This document shows, one piece after another, positions 1 to 58,011 of a stretch of 64,000 bases of DNA. How positions within the stretch are numbered: position 1 is the first letter of the stretch; every line of letters begins with the position of its first letter. The notes below the pieces were generated by a model. The model had not been told where the DNA came from, searched no databases, and worked only from the letters and a program-made list of their open reading frames with translations. Made by a program: the position numbers and the translations under genes. The stretch spans positions 16,926,001 to 16,990,000 of the forward strand of contig NC_090342.1 of assembly GCF_035084215.1 (NCBI RefSeq), given 5' to 3'. The DNA is from Heptranchias perlo. Lineage: Eukaryota.

Positions 1-931
1 AATCAAGCGGGCTGCTTTGTCCTAGATGGTGTCAAGCTTCTTGAGTGTTGTTGGAGCTGCACTCATCCAGGCAAGTGGAGAGTATTCCATCACACTCCTG
101 ACTTGAGCCTTGTAGATGGTGGAAAGGCTTTGGGGAGTCAGGAGGTGAGTCACTCGCCGGAGAATACCCAGTCTCTGACTTGCTCTTGTAGCCACAGTAT
201 TTATGTGGCTGGTCCAGTTAAGTTTCTGGTCAATGGTGACACCCAGATGTTGAAGGTGGGGGATTCGGCAATGGTAACGCCATTTAGTGTCAAGGGGAGG
301 TGGTTAGACTCTCTCTTGTTGGAGATGGTCGTTGCCTGGCACTTGTCTGGTGTCAATGCTACTTGCCACTTATGAGCCCAAGCCTGGATGTTGTCCAGGT
401 CTTGCTGCATGCAGGCACGGATTGCTGCATTATCTGAAAGGTTGCGAATGGAACTGAACACTGTGCAATCATCAGTGAACATTCCCATTTCTGACCTTAT
501 GATGGATGGAAGGTCATTGATGAAGCAGCTGAAGATGATTGGGCCTAGGATACTGCCCTGAGGAACTCCTGCAGCAATGTCCTGGGGCTGAGATGATTGG
601 CCTCCAACAACCACTACCATCTTCCTTTGTGCTAGGTATGACTCCAGCCACTGGAGAGCTTTCCCCCGGATTCCTATTGACTTCAATTTTACTAGGGCTC
701 CTTGGTGCCACACTCGGTCAAATGCTGCCTTGATGTCAAGGGCAGTCACTCTCACCTCAACTGTGGAATTCAGCTCTTTTGTCCATGTTTGTACCAAGGC
801 TGTAATAAGGTCTGGAGCCGAGTGGTCCTGGCAGAACCCAAACTGAGCATCGGTGAGCAGGTTATTGGTGAGTAAGTGCCGTTTGATAGCACTGTCGACG
901 ACACCTTCCATCATTTAGCTGATGATTGAGA
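1..931 (-). mobile_element. Fragment of LINE family A (CR1-group RT), runs off the window start
   Basis: Near-identical to 1899-2830. ORF 201..914 has the RT motifs LDIKAAFDRVWH, GVPQGSILGP and FTDD. A frameshift lies near 250. Confidence 0.95.
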
Positions 932-1393: not shown

Positions 1394-1535
1394 CTTTTAC
1401 AAATACATAAAGGGCAAAAGAGTAACTAGGGAGAGAGTAGGGCCTCTTAAGGATCAACAAGGTCATCTATGTTTTTTTTTTATTCGTTCACAGGATGTGG
1501 GCGTCGCTGGCAAGGCCGGCATTTATTGCCCATCC

Positions 1536-4457
1536 CTAATTGCCCTCGAGAAGGTGGTGGTGAGCCGCCTTCTTGAACCGCTGCAGTCCGTGTGATGACG
1601 GTTCTCCCACAGTGCTGTTAGGAAGGGAGTTCCAGGATTTTGACCCAGCGACAATGAAGGAACGGCGATATATTTCCAAGTCGGGATGGTGTGTGACTTG
1701 GAGGGGAACGTGCAGGTGGTGTTGTTCCCATGTGCCTGCTGCTCTTGTCCTTCTAGGTGGTAGAGGTCGCGGGTTTGGGAGGTGCTGTCGAAGGAGCCTT
1801 GGCGAGTTGCTGCAGTGCATCCTGTGGATGGTACACACTGCAGCCACAGTGCGCCGGTGGTGAAGGGAGTGAATGTTTAGGGTGGTGGATGGGGTGCCAA
1901 TCAAGCGGGCTGCTTTATCTTGGATGGTGTCGAGCTTCTTGAGTGTTGTTGGAGCTGCACTCATCCAGGCAAGTGGAGAGCATTCCATCACACTTCTGAC
2001 TTGTGCCTTGTAGATGGTGGAAAGGCTTTGGGGAGTCAGGAGGTGAGTCACTCGCCGCAGAATACCCAGCCTCTGACCTGCTCTCGTAGCCACGGTATTT
2101 ATATGGCTGGTCCAGTTAAGTTTCTGGTCAATGGTGACCCCCAGGATGTTGATGGTGGGGGATTCGGCGATGGTAATGCCGTTGAATGTCAAGGGGAGGT
2201 GGTTAGACTCTCTCTTGTTGGAGATGGTCATTGCCTGGCAATTATCTGGCGCGAATGTTACTTGCCACTTATGAGCCCAAGCCTGGATGTTGTCCAGGTC
2301 TTGCTGCATGCAGGCTCGGACTGCTTCATTATCTGAGGGGTTGCGAATGGAACTGAACACTGTGCAGTCATCGGCAAACATCCCCATTTCTGACCTTATG
2401 ATGGAGGGAAGGTCATTGATGAAGCAGCTGAAGATGGTTGGGCCGAGGACACTGCCCTGAGGAACTCCTGCAGCAATGCCCTGGGGCTGAGATGATTGGC
2501 CTCCAACAACCACTACCATCTTCCTTTGTGCTAGGTATGACTCCAGCCACTGGAGAGTTTTCCCCCTGATTCCCATTGACTTCAATTTTACTAGGGCTCC
2601 TTGGTGCCACACTCGGTCAAATGCTGCCTTGATGTCAAGGGCAGTCACTCTCACCTCACCTCTGGAATTCAGCTCTTTTGTCCATGTTTGGACCAAGGCT
2701 GTAATGAGGTCTGGAGCCGAGTGGTCCTGGCGGAACCCAAACTGAGCATCGGTGAGCAGGTTATTGGTGAGTAAGTGCCGCTTGATAGCACTGTCGACGA
2801 CACCTTCCATCACTTTGCTGATGATTGAGAGTAGACTGATGGGGCGGTAATTGGCCGGATTGGATTTGTCCTGCTTTTTGTGGACAGGACATACCTGGGC
2901 AATTTTCCACATTGTCGGGTGGATGCCAGTGTTGTAGCTGTACTGGAACAGCTTGGCTAGAGGCGCAGCTAGTTCTGGAGCACAAGTCTTCAGCACTACA
3001 GCTGGGATGTTGTCGGGGCCCATAGCCTTTGCTGTATCCAGTGCACTCAGCCGTTTGTTGATATCACGTGGAGTGAATCGAATTGGCCGAAGACTGGCTT
3101 CCATGATGGTGGGGATATCGGGAGGAGGCTGAGATGGATTATCCACTCGGCACTTCTGGCTGAAGATGGTTGCAAACGCTTCAGCCTTGTCTTTTGCACT
3201 CACGTGCTGGACTCCGCCATCATTGAGAATGGGGATGTTTGCAGAGCCTCCTCCTCCCGTTAGTTGTTTAATTGTCCACCACCATTCACGACTGGATGTG
3301 GCAGGACTGCAGAGCTTTGATCTGATCCGTTGGTTGTGGAATCGCTTAGCTCTGTCTATAGCATGTTGCTTCCGCTGTTTAGCATGCATGTAGTCCTGAT
3401 TTGTAGCTTCACCAGGTTGGTACCTCATTTTTAGGTACGCCTGGTGCTGCTCCTGGCATGCTCTTCTACACTCCTCATTGAACCAGGGTTGATCCCCTGG
3501 CTTGTTGGTAATGGTAGAGTGAGGAATATGCCGGGCCATGAGGTTACAGATTGTGCTGGAATACAATTCTGCTGCTGCTGATGGCCCACAGCGCCTCATG
3601 GATGCCCAGTTTTGAGCTGCTAGATCTGTTCTGAATCTATCCCATTTAGCACGGTGGTAGTGCCACACAACACGTTGGATGGTGTCCTCAGTGCGAAGAC
3701 GGGATTTCATCTCCACGAGGACTGTGCGGTGGTCACTCCTACCAATACTGTCATGGACAGATGCATTTGCGACAGGTAGATTGGTGAGGACGAGGTCAAG
3801 TAAGATTTTCCCTCGTGTTGGTTCGCTCACCACCTGCCGCAGGCCCAGTCTAGCAGATATGTCCTTCAGGACTCGGCCAGCTCGGTCAGTAGTGGTGCTA
3901 CCGAGCCACTATTGGTGATGGACATTGAAGTCCCCCACCCAGAGTATATTTTGTGCCCTTGCTACCCTCAGTGCTTCCTCCAAGTGTTGTTCAACATGGA
4001 GGAGGACTGATTCATCAGCTGAGGGAGGACGGTAGGTGGTAATCAGCAGGAGGTTTCCTTGCCCATGTTTGACCAGATGCCATGAGATTTCATGGGGTCC
4101 AGAGTCAATGTTGAGGACTCCCAGGGCCACTCCCTCCTGACTGTGTATCACTGTACCGCCACCTCTGGTGGGTCTGTCCTGCCGGTGGGACAGGACATAC
4201 CCAGGGATGGTGATGGAAGAGTCTGGGACGTTGGCTGAAAGATATGATTCTGTGAGTATGGCTATGTCAGGCTGTTGCTTGACTAGTCTGTGGGACAGCT
4301 CTCCCAATTTTGGCACAAGTCCCCAGATGTTAGTAAGGAGGACCTTGCAGGGTCGACTGGGCTTGGTGTTTTGCCGTTGTCGTGTCCGGTGCCTAGTGGT
4401 CCGATGCCGGGTGGTCCGTCCGGTTTTATTCTTATTATGACTTTTCGTAGCGAGATT
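1536..4457 (-). pseudogene. APE endonuclease plus reverse transcriptase ORF of LINE A (about 973 codons) with one in-frame TAG at 3909-3911
   Basis: ORF-track pieces 3909..4316 and 1536..3833 are in the same frame. The frame is open upstream to a TAA at 4458-4460. EN motifs: LTNIWGL, PDIAILTES, YRPP, GDFN, LDLVLTN, SDH. RT motifs: YRPISLLS, QFGFR, GVPQGSVLGP, FADD. C-terminal WNSLP. Confidence 0.93.
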
Positions 4458-4724
4458 TTACAACTGAGTGGCTTGCTAGGCCATTTCAGAGGGCAATTAA
4501 GAATCAACCACATTGCTGTGGGTCTGGAGTCACATATCGGCCAGACCGGGTAAGGGCGGCAGGCTTCCTTCCCGAAAGGACATTAGTGAACCAAATGGGT
4601 TTTTACGACAATCCGGTAGTTTCATGGCCATCATTACTGATACTAGTATTTTAATTCCAGATTTTTATTTAATTAATTGAATTTAATTAATTAATTGAAT
4701 TTAAATTCGCCAGCTGCCGTGCCG

Positions 4725-4798
4725 GGATTTGAACTCATGACTCTGGATTTTAGTCCAGGCCTCTGGATTACTAGCCCAGTAACAAAACCACTATGCTA
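4725..4798 (-). promoter_or_regulatory. Type-2 RNA polymerase III internal promoter (tRNA-like A box and B box) at the 5' end of LINE A
   Basis: On the sense strand the A box TAGCATAGTGG lies at 4798-4788, beginning at +9 from the element start. The B box GAGTTCAAATCC lies at 4736-4725. Confidence 0.8.
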
Positions 4799-6553
4799 CC
4801 GTACCCGTGCGGAGCCACAAGAGATGGGTGAGATCCTGAATGAATATTTCACATCGGTATTTACGGTTGAGAAAGGCATGGATGTTAGGGAACTTGGGGA
4901 AATAAATAGTGATGTCTTGAGGAGTGTACATATTACAGAGAGGGAGGTGCTGGAAGTCTTAACGCGCATCAAGGTAGATAAATCTCCGGGACCTGATGAA
5001 ATGTATCCCAGGACGTTATGGGAGGTTAGGGAGGAAATTGCGGGTCCCCTAGCAGAGATTTTTGAATCATCGACAGCTACAGGTGAGGTGCCTGAAGATT
5101 GGAGGGTAGCAAATGTTGTGCCTTTGTTTAAGAAGGGCGGCAGGGAAAAGCCTGGGAACTACAGACCGGTGAGCCTGACATCTGTAGTGGGTAAGTTGTT
5201 GGAGGGTATTCTGAGAGACAGGATCTGCAGGCATTTGGAGAGGCAGGGACTGATTAGGAACAGTCAACATGGTTTTGTGAGAGGAAAATCATGTCACACG
5301 AATTTGATTGAGTTTTTTGAAGGGGTAACCAAGAAGATAGATGAGGGCTGTGCAGTAGACGTGGTCTACATGGACTTTAGCAAAGCCTTTGACAAGGTAC
5401 CGCATGGTAGGTTGTTACATAAGGTTAAATCTCACAGGATCCAAGGTGAGGTAGCCAATTGGATACAAAATTGGCTTGACGACAGAAGAAAGAGGGTGGT
5501 TGTAGAGGGTTGTTTTTCAAACTGGAGGCCTGTGACCAGCGGTGTGCCTCAGGGATCGGTGCTGGGTCCGCTGTTATTTGTTATTTATATTAATGATTTG
5601 GATGAGAATTTAGGAGGCATGGTTAGTAAGTTTGCAGATGACACCAAGATTAGTGGCATTGTGGACAGTGAAGAAGGTTATCTCGGATTGCAACAGGATC
5701 TTGATAAATTGGGCCAGTGGGCCGATGAATGGCAGATGGAGTTTAATTTAGATAAATGTGAGGTGATGCATTTTGGTAGATCGAATCGGGCCAGGACCTA
5801 CTCCGTTAATGGTAGGGCGTTGGGGAGAGTTATAGAACAAAGAGATCTAGGAGTACAGGTTCATAGCTCCTTGAAAGTGGAGTCACAGGTGGATAGGGTG
5901 GTGAAGAAGGCATTCGGCATGCTTGGTTTCATTGGTCAGAACATTGAATACAGGCGTTGGGATGTTTTGTTGAAGTTGTACAAGACATTAGTAAGGCCAC
6001 ACTTGGAATACTGTGTACAGTTCTGGTTACCCTATTATAGAAAGGATATTATTAAACTAGAAAGAGTGCAGAAAAGATTTACTAGGATGCTACCGGGACT
6101 TGATGGTTTGACTTATAGGGAGAGGTTAGATAGACTGGGACTTTTTTCCCTGGAGAGTAGGAGGTTAAGGGGTGATCTTATAGAAGTCTATAAAATAATG
6201 AGGGGCATAGATAAGGTAGATAGTCAAAATCTTTTCCCAAAGGTAGGGGAGTCTATAACGAGGGGACATAGATTTAAGGTGAGAGGGGAGAGATACAAAA
6301 GGGTCCAGAGGGGCAATTTTTTCACTCAAGGGGTGGTGAGTGTCTGGAATGAGCTGCCAGAGGCAGTAGTAGAGGCAGGTACAATTTTGTCTTTTAAAAA
6401 GCATTTGGACAGTTACATGGGTAAGATGGGTATAGAGGGATATGGGCCAAGTGCAGGCAATTGGGACTAGCTTAGTGGTATAAACTGGGCGACATGGACA
6501 TGTTGGGCCAAAGGGCCTGTTTCCATGTTGTAAACTTCTATGACTCTATGACT

Positions 6554-18838: not shown

Positions 18839-19627
18839 TTTTTTTTATTCGTTCATGGGATGTGGGCGTCGCTGGCGAGGCCAGCATTTATTGCCCATCC
18901 CTAATTGCCCTTGAGAAGGTGGTGGTGAGCCGCTTTCTTGAACCGCTGCAGTCCGTGTGGTGACGGTTCTCCCACAGTGCTGTTAGGAAGGGAGTTCCAG
19001 GATTTTGACCCAGCAACGATGAAGGAACGGCGATATATTTCCAAGTCAGGATGGTGTGTGACTTGGAGGGGAACATGCAGGTGGTGTTGTTCCCATGTGC
19101 CTGCTGCTCTTGTCCTTCTAGGTGGTAGAGGTCGCGGGTTTGGGAGGTGCTGTCGAAGAAGCCTTGGCGAGTTGCTGCAGTGCATCCTGTGGATGGTACA
19201 CACTGCAGCCACAGTGCGTCAGTGGTGAAGGGAGTGAATGTTTAGGGTGGTGGATGGGGTGCCAATCAAGCGGGCTGCTTTATCTTGGATGGTGTTGAGC
19301 TTCTTGAGTGTTGGAGCTGCACTCATCCAAGCAAGTGGAGAGTATTCCATCACACTCCTGACTTGTGCCTTGTAGATGGTGGAAAGGCTTTGGGGAGTCA
19401 GGAGGTGAGTCACTTGCTGCAGAATACCCAGCCTCTGACCTGCTCTCGTAGCCACAGTATTTATATGGCTGGTCCAGTTAAGTTTCTGGTCAATGGTGAC
19501 CCCCAGGATGTTGATGGTGGGGGATTCGGCGATGGTAATGCCGTTGAATGTCAAGGGGAGGTGGTTAGACTCTCTCTTGTTGGAGATGGTCATTGCCTGG
19601 CACTTGTCTGGTGCGAATGTTACTTGC
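18839..19627 (-). mobile_element. 5'-truncated LINE family A copy
   Basis: Near-identical to 1473-2265, including the 3' UTR and oligo(A). Confidence 0.95.
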
Positions 19628-44298: not shown

Positions 44299-45260
44299 GG
44301 GCACGTTTTTAGCATGGAGCCAGGAACTGAGCGGGTGGGTACATTATCGCGTGGGGAACCTGGAGGTCAAGTTAGCATGCTGGATTCTGCGATCGCAACT
44401 CAATTGAATGCAATTGATTTTACTTCTGGGTTTCCTGCGCGACAGCCAGCCAGATTGACAGGTTGGAAGGCTGTCGGGAGGGAAGGCAGCTGGGAGTCGG
44501 AGAGGAGGAGGGAGGGACAGATTGTGGGCCATGGAGGATATGGGTGGCGGGGAAGCCTTATGCCGGAGATGGCCAATGGGGGGAGTCTCGACCATACTGG
44601 GGGGTCTCAACCATTGTGGGGTGGGGGGGGGCTCTCGACCATGGGGGGGTTCTTGACCATGGTTTTTTTAAAAATTCATTTATGGGATGTGGGCTTCGCT
44701 GGCGAGGCCGGCATTTATTGCCCATCCCTAATTGCCCTTGAGAAGGTGGTGGTGAGCCGCCTTCTTGAACCGCTGCAGTCCGTTGGTCTCAACCATAGGA
44801 AGGGGGGAGTCTCAGCGTGATTGATGGTTTAATATCCTAACCAGCAATTTGTGAGATGGGGGTGGTTGGGGGTAATGAGAGTTTGTGATCCGATACCAGA
44901 ATTTCCACTCAGTGGTGGGGAGGAGAAGGCTTGTTGTCCTAATCTAGAATTTCTGCTATGTGGTCGTATGTTGTGGGGATACATTTGGCCTTATGGTCAT
45001 TTTTTGGGGGGTGGGGGGGAGGTTGTCTCCGGATATATACTTACTGGCTTGGTTCCCCATCTTTGATCAGTGAGTGGGTTTTGATTTTTATTTTTTGCTA
45101 AATTGAGTGGGGGCAATGTTTATTATTGTACCGGGGGTTGTAAAAAGTGATGCAATGGTGGTGCTGTAGGTGAGATATATCTTTTCATTGGTTGCAATAC
45201 TTGCTAGTTGATCTTCCATGGAATTGCACGTGGGAGTCAAAACTAATGCAATTTTTCACG
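44299..45260. mobile_element. Degenerate GC-rich non-autonomous DNA element containing a LINE A 3' tail (44668-44783, -)
   Basis: TTCTGGGTTT...GACAGCCAGCCAGATTGACAGG block is shared with the MITEs. 44680-44783 matches 1492-1590. Confidence 0.55.
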
Positions 45261-49799: not shown

Positions 49800-51838
49800 T
49801 GATGTGGAGATGCCGGTGATGGACTGGGGTGGACAAATGTAAAGAATCTTACAACAACAGGTTATAGTCCAACAATTTTATTTTAAAATCACAAGCTTTC
49901 GGAGATTATCTCCTTCATCAGGTGAGTAGTGAATGAGAGGTTCTCAAATCGCATATCTTATATTAGGCTGGGACACCATCACACCAATCAAAGGTGTCGT
50001 TGGTGTTCAGACAGGTTAGCCACGGAAAACAGTAGGTCCCAGTATGCTGAATACACAATGTGTCAAATTACACAAACAAAGAGACCCGAAAGGCAGAGAG
50101 AGAGAGAGAGAGAGAATTTCCAGTTGTATTAAAAACAGATAACTTTTTTTTCCTTGCTGGTGGGGTTACGTGTAGCGTGACATGAACCCAAGATCCCGGT
50201 TGAGGCCGTCCTCATGGGTGCGGAACTTGGCTATCAATTTCTGCTCGACGATTTTGCGTTGTCGTGTGTCTCGAAGGCCGCCTTGGAGAACGCTTACCCG
50301 AAGATCGGTGGCTGAATGTCCTTGACTGCTAAAGTGTTCCCCGACTGGGAGGGAACCCTCCTGTTTGGCGATTGTTGCGCGGTGTCCGTTCATCCGTTGT
50401 TGCAGTGTCTGCATGGTCTCGCCGATGTACCATGCTCCGGGGCATCCTTTCCTGCAACGTATGATGTAGACAACGTTGGCCGAGTCACAGGAGTATGAAC
50501 CATGCACCTGGTGGGTGGTGTCCTCTCGTGTGATGGTGGTATCCGTGTCGATGATCTGGCATGTCTTGCAGAGGTTGCCATGGCAGGTTTGTGTGGTGTC
50601 GTGGACGCTGTTCTCCTGAAAGCTGGGTAATTTGCTGCGAACAATGGTCTGTTTGAGGTTGGGTGGCTGTTTGAAGGCGAGTAGTGCAGGCGTGGGGATG
50701 GCCTTAGCGAGGTGTTCATCGTCATCGATGACATGTTGAAGGCTGCGGAGAACATGGCGTAGTTTCTCCGCTCCGGGGAAGTACTGGACGACGAAGGGTA
50801 CTCTGTTGGTTGTGTCCCGTGTTTGTCTTCTGAGGAGGTCTATGCGAATCTTCGCTGTGGCCCATCGGAACTGTCAATCGACAAGTCGAGTGTCATATCC
50901 CGTTCTTACGAGGGCGTCGTTCAGCGTCTGTAGGTGTCCATCGCGTTCCTCCTCGTCTGAGCAAATCCTGTGTATTCGTAGGGCCTGTCCATAGGGGATG
51001 GCCTCTTTGATGTGGTTAGGGTGGAAGCTGGAAAAGTGGAGCATCGTGAGGTTGTCCGTGGGCTTGCGGTAGAGTGAGGTGCTGAGGTGCCCGTCTTTGA
51101 TAGAGATATGTGTGTCCAAGAAAGAAACCGATTCTGAGGAGTAGTCCATGGTGAGTTTGATGGTGGGATGGAACTTGTTGATGTTATCGTGTAGTCTCTT
51201 CAGTGGGTCCATAGGAAGAAAATGTCGTCTATGTATCTGGTGTATAGCGTTGGTTGGAGATCCTGTGCAGTGAAGAAGTCGTGCTCGAACTTGTGCATGA
51301 AAATGTTGGCGTATTGGGGTGCGAGTTTGGTCCCCATGGCTGTTCCGTGTGTTTGGGTAAAGAACTGGTTATCGAAGGTGAAGACATTGTGATCCAGGAT
51401 GAAGCGGATGAGTCGTAGGATGGCGTCTGGAGATTGGCTGTTGTTGGTGTTGAGTACTGAGGCTGTTGCAGCGATGCCATCATCTTGGGGGATACTGGTG
51501 TAGAGTGCTGAGACGTCCATCGTGGTGAGAAGTGTTCCTGGTTCAACTGGTCCGTGGGTGCTGAGTTTTTGTAGGAAGTCTGTAGTGTCGCGACAGAAGC
51601 TAGGGGTTCCCTGTACGATGGGTTTCAGGATGCCCTCGACGTATCCAGAGAGGTTCTCACACAGTTTCCGTTGCCTGATACGATAGGATATCCAGGTGTG
51701 TTGGCTTTGTGTATCTTTGGGAGGCAGTAGAAGTCTCCCACGCGGGGAGTACGTGGGATGAGAGCACGTAGGATGCTTTGAAGGTCTGGATCGAAGGTCT
51801 TGATCAGTTTGTTGAGCTGGTGGGTGTGTTCTTTGGTC
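49800..51838 (-). mobile_element. 5'-truncated Penelope-like element (RT plus GIY-YIG) with a 3' pseudo-LTR
   Basis: RT: MDVSALYTSIP, GTAMGT, RYIDDIF, FLD, LYRKPTD. GIY-YIG: NVVYIIRC...YIGET...RMNGH...GLN. Flanked by duplicated GAATTTTAT. Confidence 0.95.
49889..49925 (-). ncRNA. Minimal type I hammerhead ribozyme motif in the Penelope pLTR
   Basis: TCAC CTGATGA A GGAGA TAA TCTCC GAAA GCTT GTGA: conserved core, stems I and II, and a palindromic AAGCTT stem III. Confidence 0.8.
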
Positions 51839-52402
51839 GAATTTTATGAGTCTGTGCTCCTGTTAATGGATGGACAATTGAGGGCAGTTCACATCCTAAT
51901 TTCCAATATGTGCTCCTGGCGGTAAGGCTCCCCACCCAGAGCATGGACTCATGAAATTAACACCATTATCTTTACCTTAATAGAAATCGATAGGGATACT
52001 TCTCATTTTTAGCAATAATGGTTAATTTCAGTCAGGCATGTAAGAAGGTGTATGCAATGTATACAAAATTATTTCAGTGTTATTTCAACAGTAACGGAGA
52101 AAGATTTGGATTGTTGTTCATTCATCGCCATTTTTACCAGAGAATAGGAAGTGGCATGTAGGGCGATGTTGTTGTCTGCAGTTAAGTCCATGGGATGCTA
52201 GCTTGTGGGGGGGGGGGAGGGGGGGAAGGTAACATGGGGTGGGGGATGGTGGCACACATCAGCTGGTGTGTATATAAAGTATAATTGTCAACTTAATCCC
52301 TGGTTTGGATGCATAGTAATTAATTTCAGCTATTTTGTGTAAACTTTACAGCTGATGCAAAGAAAAAACCCAGTTATCTACTTCCTAGGCTACAAGCAAT
52401 GA

Positions 52403-52443: not shown

Positions 52444-53523
52444 ATCCAATTTTCTGTTGCTTAATGACTATCCCTGCTATTAGAAGTCAAAATATGTGAA
52501 TGGCTTTGCCTGTCTGCTGAAGGCCTTGTTCTTTAGAATTTTTACTACACAATGATTGAAAGAACATACTTCATAATATAATGATGATCTATTTTATACA
52601 AATGGAAAAATTGCTAAATTCAGTTATACTATACTGCTACAGGCACCAGCATTATAATTTTTAATATTGTTACCTGATTTCCTCTTAGAAAATGATAAAA
52701 GAATAGCAAGCATTTTGGAACTTAAATGACACCAATTGTTTCAGAATTCTCGCATATTAACCACCCAGATATAACATATATGGTGGAATTTGTCTCACCA
52801 ATATAACATCAATACAGCCTATAGTTGCCGCAAGCAATATTCATTTTAGTTTATTAGTAGAAACTGCATTTTTACTGGTATTTGCACGGTATTGAATTTT
52901 CTTCTGACATTGTCTTTGTGTGAATTCTATGCTCTGTGTACAATTTTTGTCCCTGTTTGCAATAATTGGGAGGGTGCTCTACAAATGATTTTCCCCCTGC
53001 TTAGTCATTGTAGATGACTAGAGTAATTAATTCCAGTTGGAGGCTAGTGTTAATCCTGGGCAAACCAAATAAAGGGAATGAATAATTCAAAAGCACAGTG
53101 CACAGAACAAGAGAGCTTTCAGGCATGCTGCCATGATGTGGAAATAGCAAAGTACACAATAAAAGCAATGGTGAGATTGTGCCAATCTAGAAGAAGCATC
53201 CTGCTTTATTGAACCTACAGTGATTTAGCTGATTTTGTCTCCAATAGGTAGACTAATCAAGGAATGTGTATTAAATGCAGCCATACCTAATACTCTCTTC
53301 ATCCTGCCTCCTGGTGTGGATGGATTTGGAATGATTGACCATGTCCAACTGTCTTACATCAAATTTTACAGGAATTTGCTGATCCACTTCACTTTTCAAA
53401 AAGTCCAAACACTTACACTGTAATTCGCAAACCAAATTACGCCAAAAATGAAAAGAATGACAGTCTAAGCATGGAATAAGACAATGGCCTCTTTCAACTT
53501 CTTTACTATTGGATTGTTCATTT

Positions 53524-54052
53524 CTTTTTATTCGTTCATGGGATGTGGGCATCGCTGGCAAGGCCAGCATTTATTGCCCATCCCTAATTGCCCTTGAGAA
53601 GGTGGTGGTAAGCCGCCTTCTTGAACCGCTGCAGTCCGTGTGGTGAAGGTTCTCCCACAATGCTGTTACGTAGGGAGTTCCAGGATTTTGACCCAGCGAC
53701 AATGAAGGAACGGCGATATATTTCCAAGTCGGGGTGGTGTGTGACTTGGAGGGGAACGTGCAGGTAGTGTTGTTCCCATGTGCCTGCTGCCCTTGTCCTT
53801 CTAGGTGGTAGAGGTCGCGGGTTTGGTAGGCGTTGTCGAAGAAGCGCCTACCAGCGAGTTGCTGCAGTGCATCCTGTAGATAGTGCACACTGCAGCCACG
53901 GTGCACCGGTGGTGAAGGAAGTGAATGTTTAGGGTGGTGGATGGGGTGCCAATCAAGTGGGCTGCTTTGTCCTGGATGGTGTCGAGCTTCTTGAGTGTTG
54001 TTGGAGCTGCACTCGTCCAGGCAAGTGGACAGTATTCCATCACACTCCTGAC
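53524..54052 (-). mobile_element. 5'-truncated LINE family A copy
   Basis: Matches 1475-2000. Confidence 0.93.
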
Positions 54053-55257
54053 TACAGTATTGACATGCTGACTGGATTCAGTCATGTTGATGGGGAGAGA
54101 ATTTCTATAGAAAGACTTGTATTTGTATAGCGCGTTTCATTATCTCTGAATGTTCCAAAGCACTTTACAGCCAATGAAGTACTTTTGAAGTCTGGTCACT
54201 GTTGTAATGTAGGAAATGTGGCTGCCAAATTGCGCACAGCAAGGTCTCATGAAAAGCAATGTGATAATGATCTGTTTTGGCTGAGGGACAAATATTGGCC
54301 AGGACATTGGTGCTTAATCCTTGACTTTTACAAATTTATCATTACTTGACCTATATTTAGCCCACAACCAACATCACTAAAACAGATTACCTGGTCATTT
54401 ACCTTATTGTTGTTTGTGGGACTTTGCTGTGCGCAAATTAGCTGCTGTGTTTCCCCACTCTCAACAGTGACTACACTTCAAAAGTACTTTATTGATTTTG
54501 AAGTCCTTTGGGGCATTTTGAGGATGATAAATGCAAGTTCTTTCTTTTCTCTTTCTTAATGTCTTTGCTTTTGGTCTCTATGCTCCTGTATATAAAACCT
54601 AAAATGTGATTTTTTTTTAATGGCTTTATGTACTTGCATTTGCAACCTGTAAAGCCTTGTTAGCATTGCTAGGCTTCAATACAGAGATTATTGTTGACTT
54701 TTTTCTATCCAGAATTGATGCCAAATCCATCTATCCTTGTGTTCCAGAGACATATTGGTAAACCTCTACTCAATGGGTATAAAGTCATGCTATGGGCAGA
54801 TGGTGGGTCATTCCCAGTCTGCAACAGACCCGTAAACCTGATTGCAACAGCACTTTACATTCCTGAAGTCATTATTGAGAGCAATCTGCTTCATTACTTC
54901 TCAGCTTCATTTACCTAGGATATAATTGCATTTTTGCAACAATTTTATCCAAAGATTCCTTCGTTAGTATAAGAGTTCGGGATTTGCCTGTTTTCCAACA
55001 AAAGTTATTTTTCTGAATCATATCTTTTTCACTTTTTGTATATTGGGTGGTATATCAGCAAGATACCTCTGTAGGCAACTGTAATCAAGACAAATGTGAT
55101 GCAAAATTGACCGTAATGTTTGGTGAGAATCTGGAAAATTTGTGTGGCATGCTATTGGGCAAGCCCAGGGTCTCCCCATGCCTAATTCAATAAATGATAA
55201 CAAGCCCTGCATTTGAATTTCTCCATGCAAGGGATAGAATTCCAGGCAAAGATAATA

Positions 55258-58011
55258 GGTCAGAATTTGCTAGCAAAATAATGGCGAGTTTAATGCACAT
55301 GCCGTGATTAATGTGTAAATCGTTCAGCTATTTGTGGTGAGGAAGAGATACCCTGTGAGTTGCAAATCTTTACAAATTGCTGGACGATTTGGGCCGCTCC
55401 ACATTAGCCTCACGAAAATGGCAGCTCGGATCAACCACCCCGTGCCTTTCAAGAAATTGCTGCATTTGCACGTTAATTACCAGTTAAACTCGTGGCAGAA
55501 AGTTACGGCTGGTACTTAACAGTATAAGTACCCTTTTAATGACAAGATTTGCAATGCTACTCAACCTCTCCGGCCCAGAAAGGGAATAGTTGAAACTGTG
55601 GAGCCCCATTCCTGCAGGTAGTAAATTGTTCTTTGAGATTGAGGCACTAGTCAAAAATAAGGAGGCATATGACATGCATAGGCAGCTGGGATCAAGTGGA
55701 TCCCTTGAAGAGTATAGAGATTGCCGGAGTAGAGTTAAGAGAGAAATCAGGAGGGCAAAAAGGGGATATGAGATTGCTTTGGCAGATCAGGCAAAGGTGA
55801 ATCCAAAGAGCTTCTACAAATACATAAAGGGCAAAAGGGTAACTAGGGAGAGAGTAGGGCCTCTTAAGGATCAACAAGGTCATCTATGTGCGGAACCACA
55901 AGAGATGGGTGAGATCCTGAATGAATATTTCACATCGGTATTTACGGTTGAGAAAGGCATGGATGTTAGGGAACTTGGGGAAATAAATAGTGATGTCTTG
56001 AGGAGTGTACATATTACAGTAAGGGAGGTGCTGGAAGTCTTAACGCGCATCAAGGTAGATAAATCTCCGGGACCTGATGAAATGTATCCCAGGACGTTAT
56101 GGGAGGTTAGGGAGGAAATTGCGGGTCCCCTAGCAGAGATATTTGAATCATCCACCGCTACAGGTGAGGTGCCTGAAGATTGGAGGGTAGCAAATGTTGT
56201 GCCTTTGTTTAAGAAGGGCGGCAGGGAAAAGCCTGGGAACTACAGACCAGTGAGCCTGACATCTGTAGTGGGTAAGTTGTTAGAGGGTATTCTGAGGGAC
56301 AGAATCTACAGGCATTTGGAGAGGCAGGGACTAATTAGGAACAGTCAGCATGGTTTTGTGAGAGGAAAATCATGTCTCACAAATTTGATTGAGTTTTTTG
56401 AAGGGGTAACCAAGAAGATAGATGAGGGCTGTGCATTAGACGTGGTCTACATGGACTTCAGCAAAGCATTTGACAAGGTACCGCATGGTAGGTTGTTACA
56501 TAAGGTTAAATCTCATGGGATCCAAGGTGAGGTAGCCAATTGGATACAAAATTGGCTTGACGACAGAAGACAGAGGGTGGTTGTCGAGGGTTGTTTTTCA
56601 AACTGGATGCCTGTGTCCAGCGGTGTGCCTCAGGGATCGGTGCTGGGTCCGCTGTTATTTGTTATTTATATTAATGATTTGGATGAGAATTTAGGAGGCA
56701 TGGTTAGTAAGTTTGCAGATGACACCAAGATTGGTGGCATTGTGGACAGTGAAGAAGGTTATCTAGGATTGCAACGGGATCTTGATAAATTGGGCCAGTG
56801 GGCCGATGAATGGCAGATGGAGTTTAATTTAGATAAATGTGAGGTGATGCATTTTGGTAGATCGAATCGGGCCAGGACCTACTCCGTTAATGGTAGGGCG
56901 TTGGGGAGAGTTATAGAACAAAGAGATCTAGGAGTACAGATTCATAGCTCCTTGAAAGTGGAGTCACAGGTGGATAGGGTGGTGAAGAAGGCATTCAGCA
57001 TGCTTGGTTTCATTGGTCAGAACATTGAATGCAGGAGTTGGGATGTCTTGTTGAAGTTGTACAGGGCATTGGTGAGGCCACACTTGGAGTACTGTGTACA
57101 GTTCTGGTCACCCTATTATAGAAAGGATATTATTAAACTAGAAAGAGTGCAGAAAAGATTTACTAGGATGCTACCGGGACTTGATGGTTTGACTTACAGG
57201 GAGAGGTTAGACAGACTGGGACTTTATTCCCTGGAGAGTAGGAGGTTAAGGGGTGATCTTATAGAAGTCTATAAAATAATGAGGGGCATAGATAAGGTCG
57301 ATAGTCAAAATCTTTTCCCAAAGGTAGGGGAGTCTATAACGAGGGGGCACAGATTTAAGGTGAGAGGGGAGAGATACAAAAGGATCCAGAGGGGCAATTT
57401 TTTCACTCAAAGGGTGGTGAGTGTCTGGAACGAGCTGCCAGAGGCAGTAGTAGAGGCGGGTACAATTTTGTCTTTTAAAAAGCATTTGGACAGTTACATG
57501 GGGAAGATGGGTATCGAGGGATATGGGCCAAGTGCAGGCAATTGGGACTAGCTTAGTGGTATAAACTGGGCGACATGGACATGTTGGGCCGAAGGGCCTG
57601 TTTCCATGTTGTAACTTCTATGATTCTATGATTCTATGATTCTATGATTTTTAAAATTTTAGATTTAAAATTTTTATATTTTTTTCTTCCTTTACCTTTC
57701 TGTCTTTTTTTTGCTCTCCCTTAATCCAATCTACCTCTCCCTCTCTCTATTTCTCTTTCTGTACTTGATTTGACTCTAATTCACCCTATTTTCTTTTCCA
57801 TCATTCCTTTCTCAATCCTTAAATATTATTTGTTTAAGGAGATACCCTGTTGGTCTCATTGTTCACCAAGATCCCAGATGCCTTGGCGCCTGTTATCGGC
57901 TTGCACTTCCAACAATTTGCAGCACAAAAAATTTTCGAGCGGAAGGGTGCGGGAAAAAATCTAACTCACATGATATGCCGTGAGATGCCCCACTCCAGCA
58001 AATTCTGGGCC
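55258..58011. mobile_element. MITE-like element (same family as 7110-7894) split by a young CR1
   Basis: Ends are GGTCAGAATTTGCT and AGCAAATTCTGGGCC. Confidence 0.7.
55635..57649 (+). mobile_element. Young 5'-truncated CR1 LINE (family B) with an uninterrupted RT frame to 57551
   Basis: ORF 55590..57551 has no stops and all RT motifs. It ends in a (TTCTATGA)4 tail and is highly similar to 4807-6553. Confidence 0.97.

Follow-up and report, generated by a model that had tools for sequence, protein, structure and literature searches.

The closest described relatives of the element analyzed here are the Zenon long interspersed nuclear elements (LINEs) of sharks and rays, which "universally lacked ORF1" (open reading frame 1) and carry poly-A tails (PMC13343379; what we say of cited papers refers to the available portions of each). 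Lepidopteran Zenon elements likewise have a single ORF and give rise to short internally deleted elements such as Persaeus, which has neither tRNA homology nor an RNA polymerase III (Pol III) promoter (PMC6740152). A tRNA head joined to the 5′ part and the 3′ tail of a LINE is known from the short interspersed elements (SINEs) Bov-tA, CoeSINE4, and SINE2-1_ACar, in which the head sits on a non-coding deletion product; SINEs are stated in these sources to be unable to encode protein (PMC5786205, PMC4494074). How does a locus of the shark Heptranchias perlo compare? In a 64,000-nucleotide stretch of its genome (NC_090342.1, positions 16,926,001 to 16,990,000; the window), we analyzed a full-length Zenon-type copy that has the layout of these SINEs but bears the tRNA-like head on a full coding element, and whose deletion derivatives, unlike Persaeus, bear the head as well. 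Its family suggests an AUG-less coding LINE transcribed end to end by Pol III and translated from GCU through a fold resembling internal ribosome entry sites (IRESs), a reading whose chances of being right and of being wrong seem to us evenly balanced.

A LINE of the CR1 group, the element belongs by its sequence to the catalogued elasmobranch Zenon family (PMC13343379), with an APE endonuclease and a reverse transcriptase (RT) in one ORF, no ORF1, and a poly-A tail. We compared it by eye with the first 400 letters of each row in the supplement of that paper. All seven elasmobranch Zenon consensuses, from five species (CarCar, RhiTyp, ScyCan, and HypSab Zenon-1; SquAca Zenon-1, -2, and -3), open with the A- and B-box head, followed by the same leader and N-terminal coding letters; the head is present in none of the three hagfish and coelacanth rows. 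The five Zenon-1 rows are 3,244 to 3,314 long, compared with 3,334 here, and likewise have a poly-A tail and no ORF1. The leader motif matched at six places of the supplement, and the two displayed are Zenon rows. The missing ORF1, which a sequence-only reading of the window had treated as an anomaly, is normal for Zenon elements. The head is present in the published consensuses but is not discussed: the main text of PMC13343379 nowhere mentions tRNA, promoter, polymerase III, or translation, and the preprint likewise has no mention of tRNA, Pol III, or promoter.

The element interrupts a CR1 that also occurs uninterrupted in the window, its left flank matching positions 55811 to 55889 and its right flank 55888 to 56380 at 97% identity. 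The sequence-only reading was right about this interruption, about its length, and about the GT found on either side; the empty site, which it had placed at 55881, is at 55888-55889. Both boxes that it had described are present (A box at +9 to +19, B box at +71 to +82 of the element). The 973-codon frame, counted from stop to stop, starts at element position 350 and is interrupted, as had been noted, by a single nonsense codon, number 183. The 349-nt leader indeed has no room for ORF1: the longest ATG-started frame upstream, measured on the intact copy L033, has 76 codons in the +1 frame. The window copy is a damaged Zenon LINE: besides this nonsense codon, its head contains a TTTT. The exact 25-base head pattern with A at the TTTT site occurs 5,008 times in the genome, and T is found there in 23 of 100 listed non-A variants (G in 49, C in 28); the TTTT is therefore a background mutation.

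ARAGORN called no tRNA within the window, and the Rfam match of the head to tRNA was weak (16 bits versus a gathering score of 29, E = 2). The head is therefore tRNA-like rather than a tRNA gene, with the A and B boxes of a tRNA-derived SINE and a score below the Rfam tRNA threshold. Of the only two host isotypes sampled, Thr and Cys, the head best matches tRNA-Thr. Among sharks and a ray the A and B boxes are conserved, by eye, and the letters between them vary. Two copies (L051 and L065) have their own first bases briefly duplicated at the 5′ junction, as by a template jump in reverse transcription. The genome also holds large tandem arrays of tRNA-Cys-type genes at ∼2.35-kb spacing (L330-L359, G000:C23).

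Linkage of head and coding frame across the family

A genome search with the head plus junction gave 2,946 candidates, of which the best 40 were scored; all were at least 97% identical over almost the entire query. The head was joined to endonuclease and RT in all 39 other top matches, 38 of which reached the 3′ end, and their flanks differed with the exception of one duplicated pair (L040 and L061, counted as a single insertion). The junction recurs with independent flanks, and the successful family that the sequence-only reading had supposed is borne out. Among the 38 copies analyzed, 8 kept the 973-codon frame and 32 had no target site duplication of at least 4 bases (L042 was left out of the T-run and ORF counts, and L322 out of the old set).

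The same linkage was found irrespective of whether copies were picked by the head. Among the first 40 non-query matches of 150 from an endonuclease-protein search, 27 start at +1 to +12 and 13 are cut within the leader at 126 to 410, with no alternative common 5′ sequence in any of these 40 copies; the 973-codon frame is open in ∼38 of the 150 best matches. In an older subfamily (∼70 to 88% identity per copy), head plus endonuclease was present at 8 of 16 loci; a genome DNA search with an older window copy as the query gave just ∼95% matches. A conventional 5′ untranslated region (UTR) with ORF1, looked for in the 40 endonuclease-picked copies, was not found there, and the junction is not confined to this locus. 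A one-off template switch as the origin of the junction is ruled out by this family-wide linkage (39 of 39, the 40 endonuclease-picked copies, and 8 of 16 old loci). Four contig sets presumed to be RNA cover head, core, and endonuclease; none of the pieces listed spans the stretch, so they are uninformative on start, strand, or level. One database gene model (P0081), annotated as "aldo-keto reductase family 1 member B1-like", includes ∼220 residues of the element frame and is likely a misannotated or exonized insertion.

Thirty loci picked by head variant comprised 16 with head plus endonuclease, 11 deletion products made of head, core, and tail, and 3 other deletions or truncations. The break point in 10 of these 11 falls at L033 positions 339 to 362, at the leader/coding boundary. 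A pattern running from the leader end into the tail had 156 exact matches with many distinct junctions, which points to a LINE that has repeatedly given rise to SINE-like elements. Those SINE-like elements of this genome that share its head and body appear to be internally deleted LINE copies, and for this reason the "SINE plus LINE hybrid" of the sequence-only reading fits ancestry at best, although head and coding frame do move together as it had proposed. The 3.3-kb LINE has the A/B-box head of a tRNA-derived SINE; a short, non-coding body is found only in its deletion derivatives.

T runs, translation start, and leader fold

Four or more T in a row act as a stop signal for vertebrate Pol III. 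The absence of runs of four T (T4) has been used as a test of Pol III transcription (PMC4494074). Sense-strand T4 was absent from 28 of 38 head-picked and 32 of 40 endonuclease-picked copies, with the exceptions scattered, and full-length copies carry ∼21 runs of four A on the same strand. In L033, TTTT is the sole absent 4-mer of 256, and the column majority of the old subfamily also has no T4 (2,971 sites called, 187 differences). Internal T4 is thus lacking at the family level and present in the window copy, at +20. The frame contains 6 TTT, compared with 13.7 ± 2.6 in its synonymous shuffles (none of 1,000 went this low) and with 16.9 expected from a second null (P = 0.0005). Of the 87 control LINE frames, none is free of T4 and 86 have at least six; the observed/expected TTT ratio of 0.44 lies below all of them (lowest, 0.75). 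The CR1 within the window showed no depletion of T runs. The T-run evidence for Pol III is supportive, not decisive. The literature searched, mostly open-access, contained no Pol III-driven coding LINE and no account of the Zenon head.

The 3′ end has the order of AATAAA, variable-length T position, and A tail found in the T+ SINEs Can and B2 (PMC9599045), which are short and non-coding, unlike the shark LINE. T runs of at least 2 were present in 24 of 106 tails and of at least 4 in 12 of 106. T runs also grow with age in A tails, and the likeness is therefore not discriminating.

Where could translation begin? None of the eight intact copies has an in-frame Met before codon 250, which lies past the endonuclease, and upstream the main frame is shut by two in-frame stops; a non-AUG start or recoding is therefore required, and we consider a non-AUG start highly probable. 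The in-frame ACG of young copies reads ACA in older subfamilies. A conserved GCT lies in the endonuclease frame, and also, by eye, in four of five other species' rows. Over the first 110 nt past it, 6 of 11 differences are at third positions, like the 86 of 157 of the whole frame, and the residues following it, A-T-K-S/T, are encoded by different codons in CarCar, RhiTyp, ScyCan, and Heptranchias perlo.

Conservation marks the final 165 nt of the leader. Their predicted folds contain a small tetraloop hairpin besides a long stem, and end in a hairpin whose 7-nt loop resembles a tRNA anticodon loop with the anticodon AGC (stem probability, 0.93 to 0.98). Between this hairpin and GCT is a variable linker, which measures 12 nt in almost all matches listed. 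The loop-codon motif arose in 0.4 to 0.9% of 5,000 shuffles and at 1 of 65 control starts. Of 151 rows, 101 have T-A at one stem pair of the leader and 32 have A-T. Among the 15 subfamily differences found in the core, 12 are unpaired (42% of positions are paired) and two of the rest form this swap. The RhiTyp consensus has, by eye, a second compensatory change.

Type 6 dicistrovirus intergenic IRESs resemble this leader in having a structured core (150 to 190 nt) and a variable linker, and their 3′ anticodon-mimic hairpin and non-AUG GCU start may have counterparts in its final hairpin and predicted start (PMC12221177, PMC10516663, PMC10275262); GCU is the commonest start in types 6a to 6d (PMC12221177). 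Such IRESs in LINEs have been raised as a possibility (PMC3894237). By analogy, the shark leader may work like a dicistrovirus-type IRES, and the chance of a factor-free start of this kind we put a little short of even.

Three further observations concern the leader. By eye, the long stem's apical loop (∼4553-4560) has its complement in 5 to 7 bases just 3′ of the B box (∼4712-4720) in all lineages seen, a possible long-range pseudoknot. In the young subfamily, 11 bases at element positions 310 to 320 (∼4487-4497) form the exact complement of the end of the ORF plus the beginning of the 3′ UTR (∼1530-1540), and old-type copies keep just ∼6 of them, which may reflect end-to-end pairing or chance. 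Upstream of one old copy (L318), a 21-base piece of the core is amplified in many tandem units.

Relatives, further copies, and coordinates

The nearest database relatives of the protein are ∼40% identical. A 34-row RT tree, built without named Zenon references, placed the element apart from the window's CR1 (31% identity); its nearest relatives in that tree were 44 to 49% identical, with amphioxus P0008 in its group. A 20-base leader motif had no match in viral contigs or GTDB contigs, and no meaningful leader match was found in 80 metagenome relatives and 80 relatives from contaminants of metagenome-assembled genomes (MAGs), all at most 37% identical, with the nearest invertebrate lineages outside the sample. 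No relatives were found in viral contigs, relaxed ARAGORN on relatives gave only noise, and a PDB search returned only the L1 and R2 RTs. Host contamination probably explains why intact eukaryotic LINE proteins turn up in many "bacterial" contigs of GTDB (L360-L439), above all in those of symbiont MAGs.

The four further copies that had been reported in the window were found at 91 to 97% identity, one of them crossing the window edge. At 50166-51862 (minus strand) there are disrupted frames that look like a Penelope-type RT and a GIY-YIG endonuclease.

Table 1. Positions of the Zenon copy, its parts, and related copies in the window
Feature	Position	Strand	Basis or remark
Full-length Zenon-type LINE copy, 3,334 bp, inside CR1	1473..4806	-	Empty site 55811-56380
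Right part of interrupted host CR1	4807..6470	+	
tRNA-like head with duplicated anticodon-arm-like segment	4715..4806	-	Rfam search and host tRNA comparison
A box	4788..4798	-	Also by eye in published shark/ray consensuses
B box	4725..4736	-	
TTTT lesion of window copy, directly after A box; family has A	4784..4787	-	Element +20..23
Conserved structured leader core, ∼165 nt; candidate ribosome-entry element	4448..4613	-	Retained by deletion derivatives
Hairpin with 7-nt anticodon-like loop	4464..4489; upper stem 4469-4483	-	Stem pair probability as in text
Conserved GCT(A), cognate to loop; predicted coding-frame start	4448..4451	-	
Single 973-codon endonuclease-RT frame	1536..4457	-	First in-frame Met (codon 250) at 3708-3710
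Nonsense codon 183 of window copy	3909..3911	-	Glu in intact copy L033
APE-type endonuclease, approximate limits	3722..4331	-	Pfam PF03372 and alignment
Reverse transcriptase domain (RVT_1)	2130..2876	-	Pfam PF00078, E = 5e-37
Short 3′ UTR with AATAAA (1522-1527) and A tail	1473..1535	-	
Partial copy, runs off window	1..931	-	94% identity
5′-truncated copy	18839..19627	-	97% identity
3′-end-only copy	44663..44783	-	91% identity
5′-truncated copy	53521..54053	-	93% identity

Competing accounts and their implications

In the Pol III reading, TFIIIC would bind both boxes of the head, with Pol III initiating at +1. With no T4 run in its path, the polymerase would cover ∼3.3 kb before meeting a T run, either at the tail or past it. 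Because uncapped RNA cannot use cap-dependent scanning, the 165-nt core would have to recruit the ribosome, with the anticodon-like loop fixing the frame at GCU. The LINE protein would insert its own RNA by target-primed reverse transcription, together with the RNA of deletion products, and internal deletions retaining head, core, and tail would spread as tRNA-headed SINE-like elements. We infer from the sequence that a Pol III promoter stands in place of an RNA polymerase II (Pol II) promoter; taken by itself, Pol III transcription of the element appears somewhat more probable than its opposite.

Several observations weigh against this account. Because the sense strand is only 20% T, the absence of T4 is weak evidence when taken alone (expected 2.0 to 3.1, P ∼0.05 to 0.10), and the sole control with 20% T has one T4 versus 3.7 expected. 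The TTT z-score (∼-3.0) is equalled by 2 of the 87 controls (-3.8 and -3.5), and a Markov null shows CCC to be just as depleted as TTT. The Pol III retroposons known so far reach ∼1.3 kb at most, a limit blamed on weak processivity (PMC10886601). For the leader, the T-A/A-T swap is a single event that also served to define the old group, the loop-codon motif was defined after being seen and has no covariation support because its pairing is invariant, and the core is no more stable than shuffles (z of 0.01; -0.2 to -1.2 with a second fold). The L1.1 loop motifs and nested PKII/PKIII of type 6 IRESs were not seen in the leader folds, and the leader matched no Rfam IRES family up to E = 5. In addition, the known PKI pairs the triplet before GCU, whereas the shark loop is complementary to GCU itself. 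By eye, GCT is one base out of frame in the SquAca-1 consensus, and five published rows have a +1-frame ATG that reads ATA or ATC in Heptranchias perlo.

Could the head instead be a passenger on a Pol II LINE? A Pol II promoter in the leader or upstream would then yield a capped RNA polyadenylated at AATAAA, still with an AUG-less start; the boxes would persist for another cause (chromatin, or in the short derivatives only), and low T would explain the missing TTTT. Every characterized LINE promoter cited in PMC5786205 and PMC10886601 is a Pol II promoter, AATAAA precedes the A tail, a low-T relative is nearly T4-free too, and the absence of T4 is weak evidence when taken alone. Harder to fit are the boxes that persist (by eye) in sharks and a ray amid varying letters, the two AATAAA in the first 400 nt, and the TTT deficit beyond that of any control. 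A fourth 5′ G was present in just 3 of 43 copies, and there is therefore no clear cap-derived extra G, a weak point since a cap G could be fixed. Overall, we regard this account, the chief competitor of the Pol III reading, as rather unlikely.

Initiation at an upstream AUG, on a Pol III or Pol II RNA, with the endonuclease frame reached by -1 frameshifting or re-initiation and the hairpin serving as something other than an IRES, appears improbable. The 76-codon ATG frame (L033 296-526) runs into the main frame, in +1, and the published rows hold the additional +1-frame ATG noted above; however, the old-type majority has ACG in place of the upstream ATG, the second is missing from Heptranchias perlo, and in RhiTyp, by eye, a linker shorter by one base shuts the upstream frame. 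No standard slippery heptamer was found by eye, and the residues after GCT are kept by different codons in four species. Far less probable still is a one-off template switch, or else an RT-only element whose endonuclease is dead and whose translation begins at Met 250. The window copy itself is broken and Met 250 is the first in-frame AUG, yet the junction is found family-wide, the endonuclease catalytic motifs align with those of relatives, and about a quarter of the best endonuclease matches (∼38 of 150) keep the whole frame open.

The Pol III reading in its fullest form describes an autonomous shark and ray LINE wholly outside the mRNA system, with an uncapped 3.3-kb Pol III RNA, a GCU start made by a cellular IRES of dicistrovirus type without initiator tRNA, and deletions born as tRNA SINEs; in that form it is unlikely. 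New here are the T4-free sense strand, the AUG-less frame, the anticodon-codon motif, and the SINE-like derivatives that break at the hairpin/GCT boundary. The leader is a candidate open to testing that looks like the factor-free IRESs of viruses, a class of still open origin, and intact natural copies of the element exist in the genome. In the received division, LINEs are Pol II coding units and SINEs are Pol III non-coding passengers. If the Pol III reading is true, an old and abundant Pol III-driven coding LINE would break that division: Pol III would make a 3.3-kb message, which would need cap-independent translation, and a LINE would become a SINE by a direct route, in one deletion.

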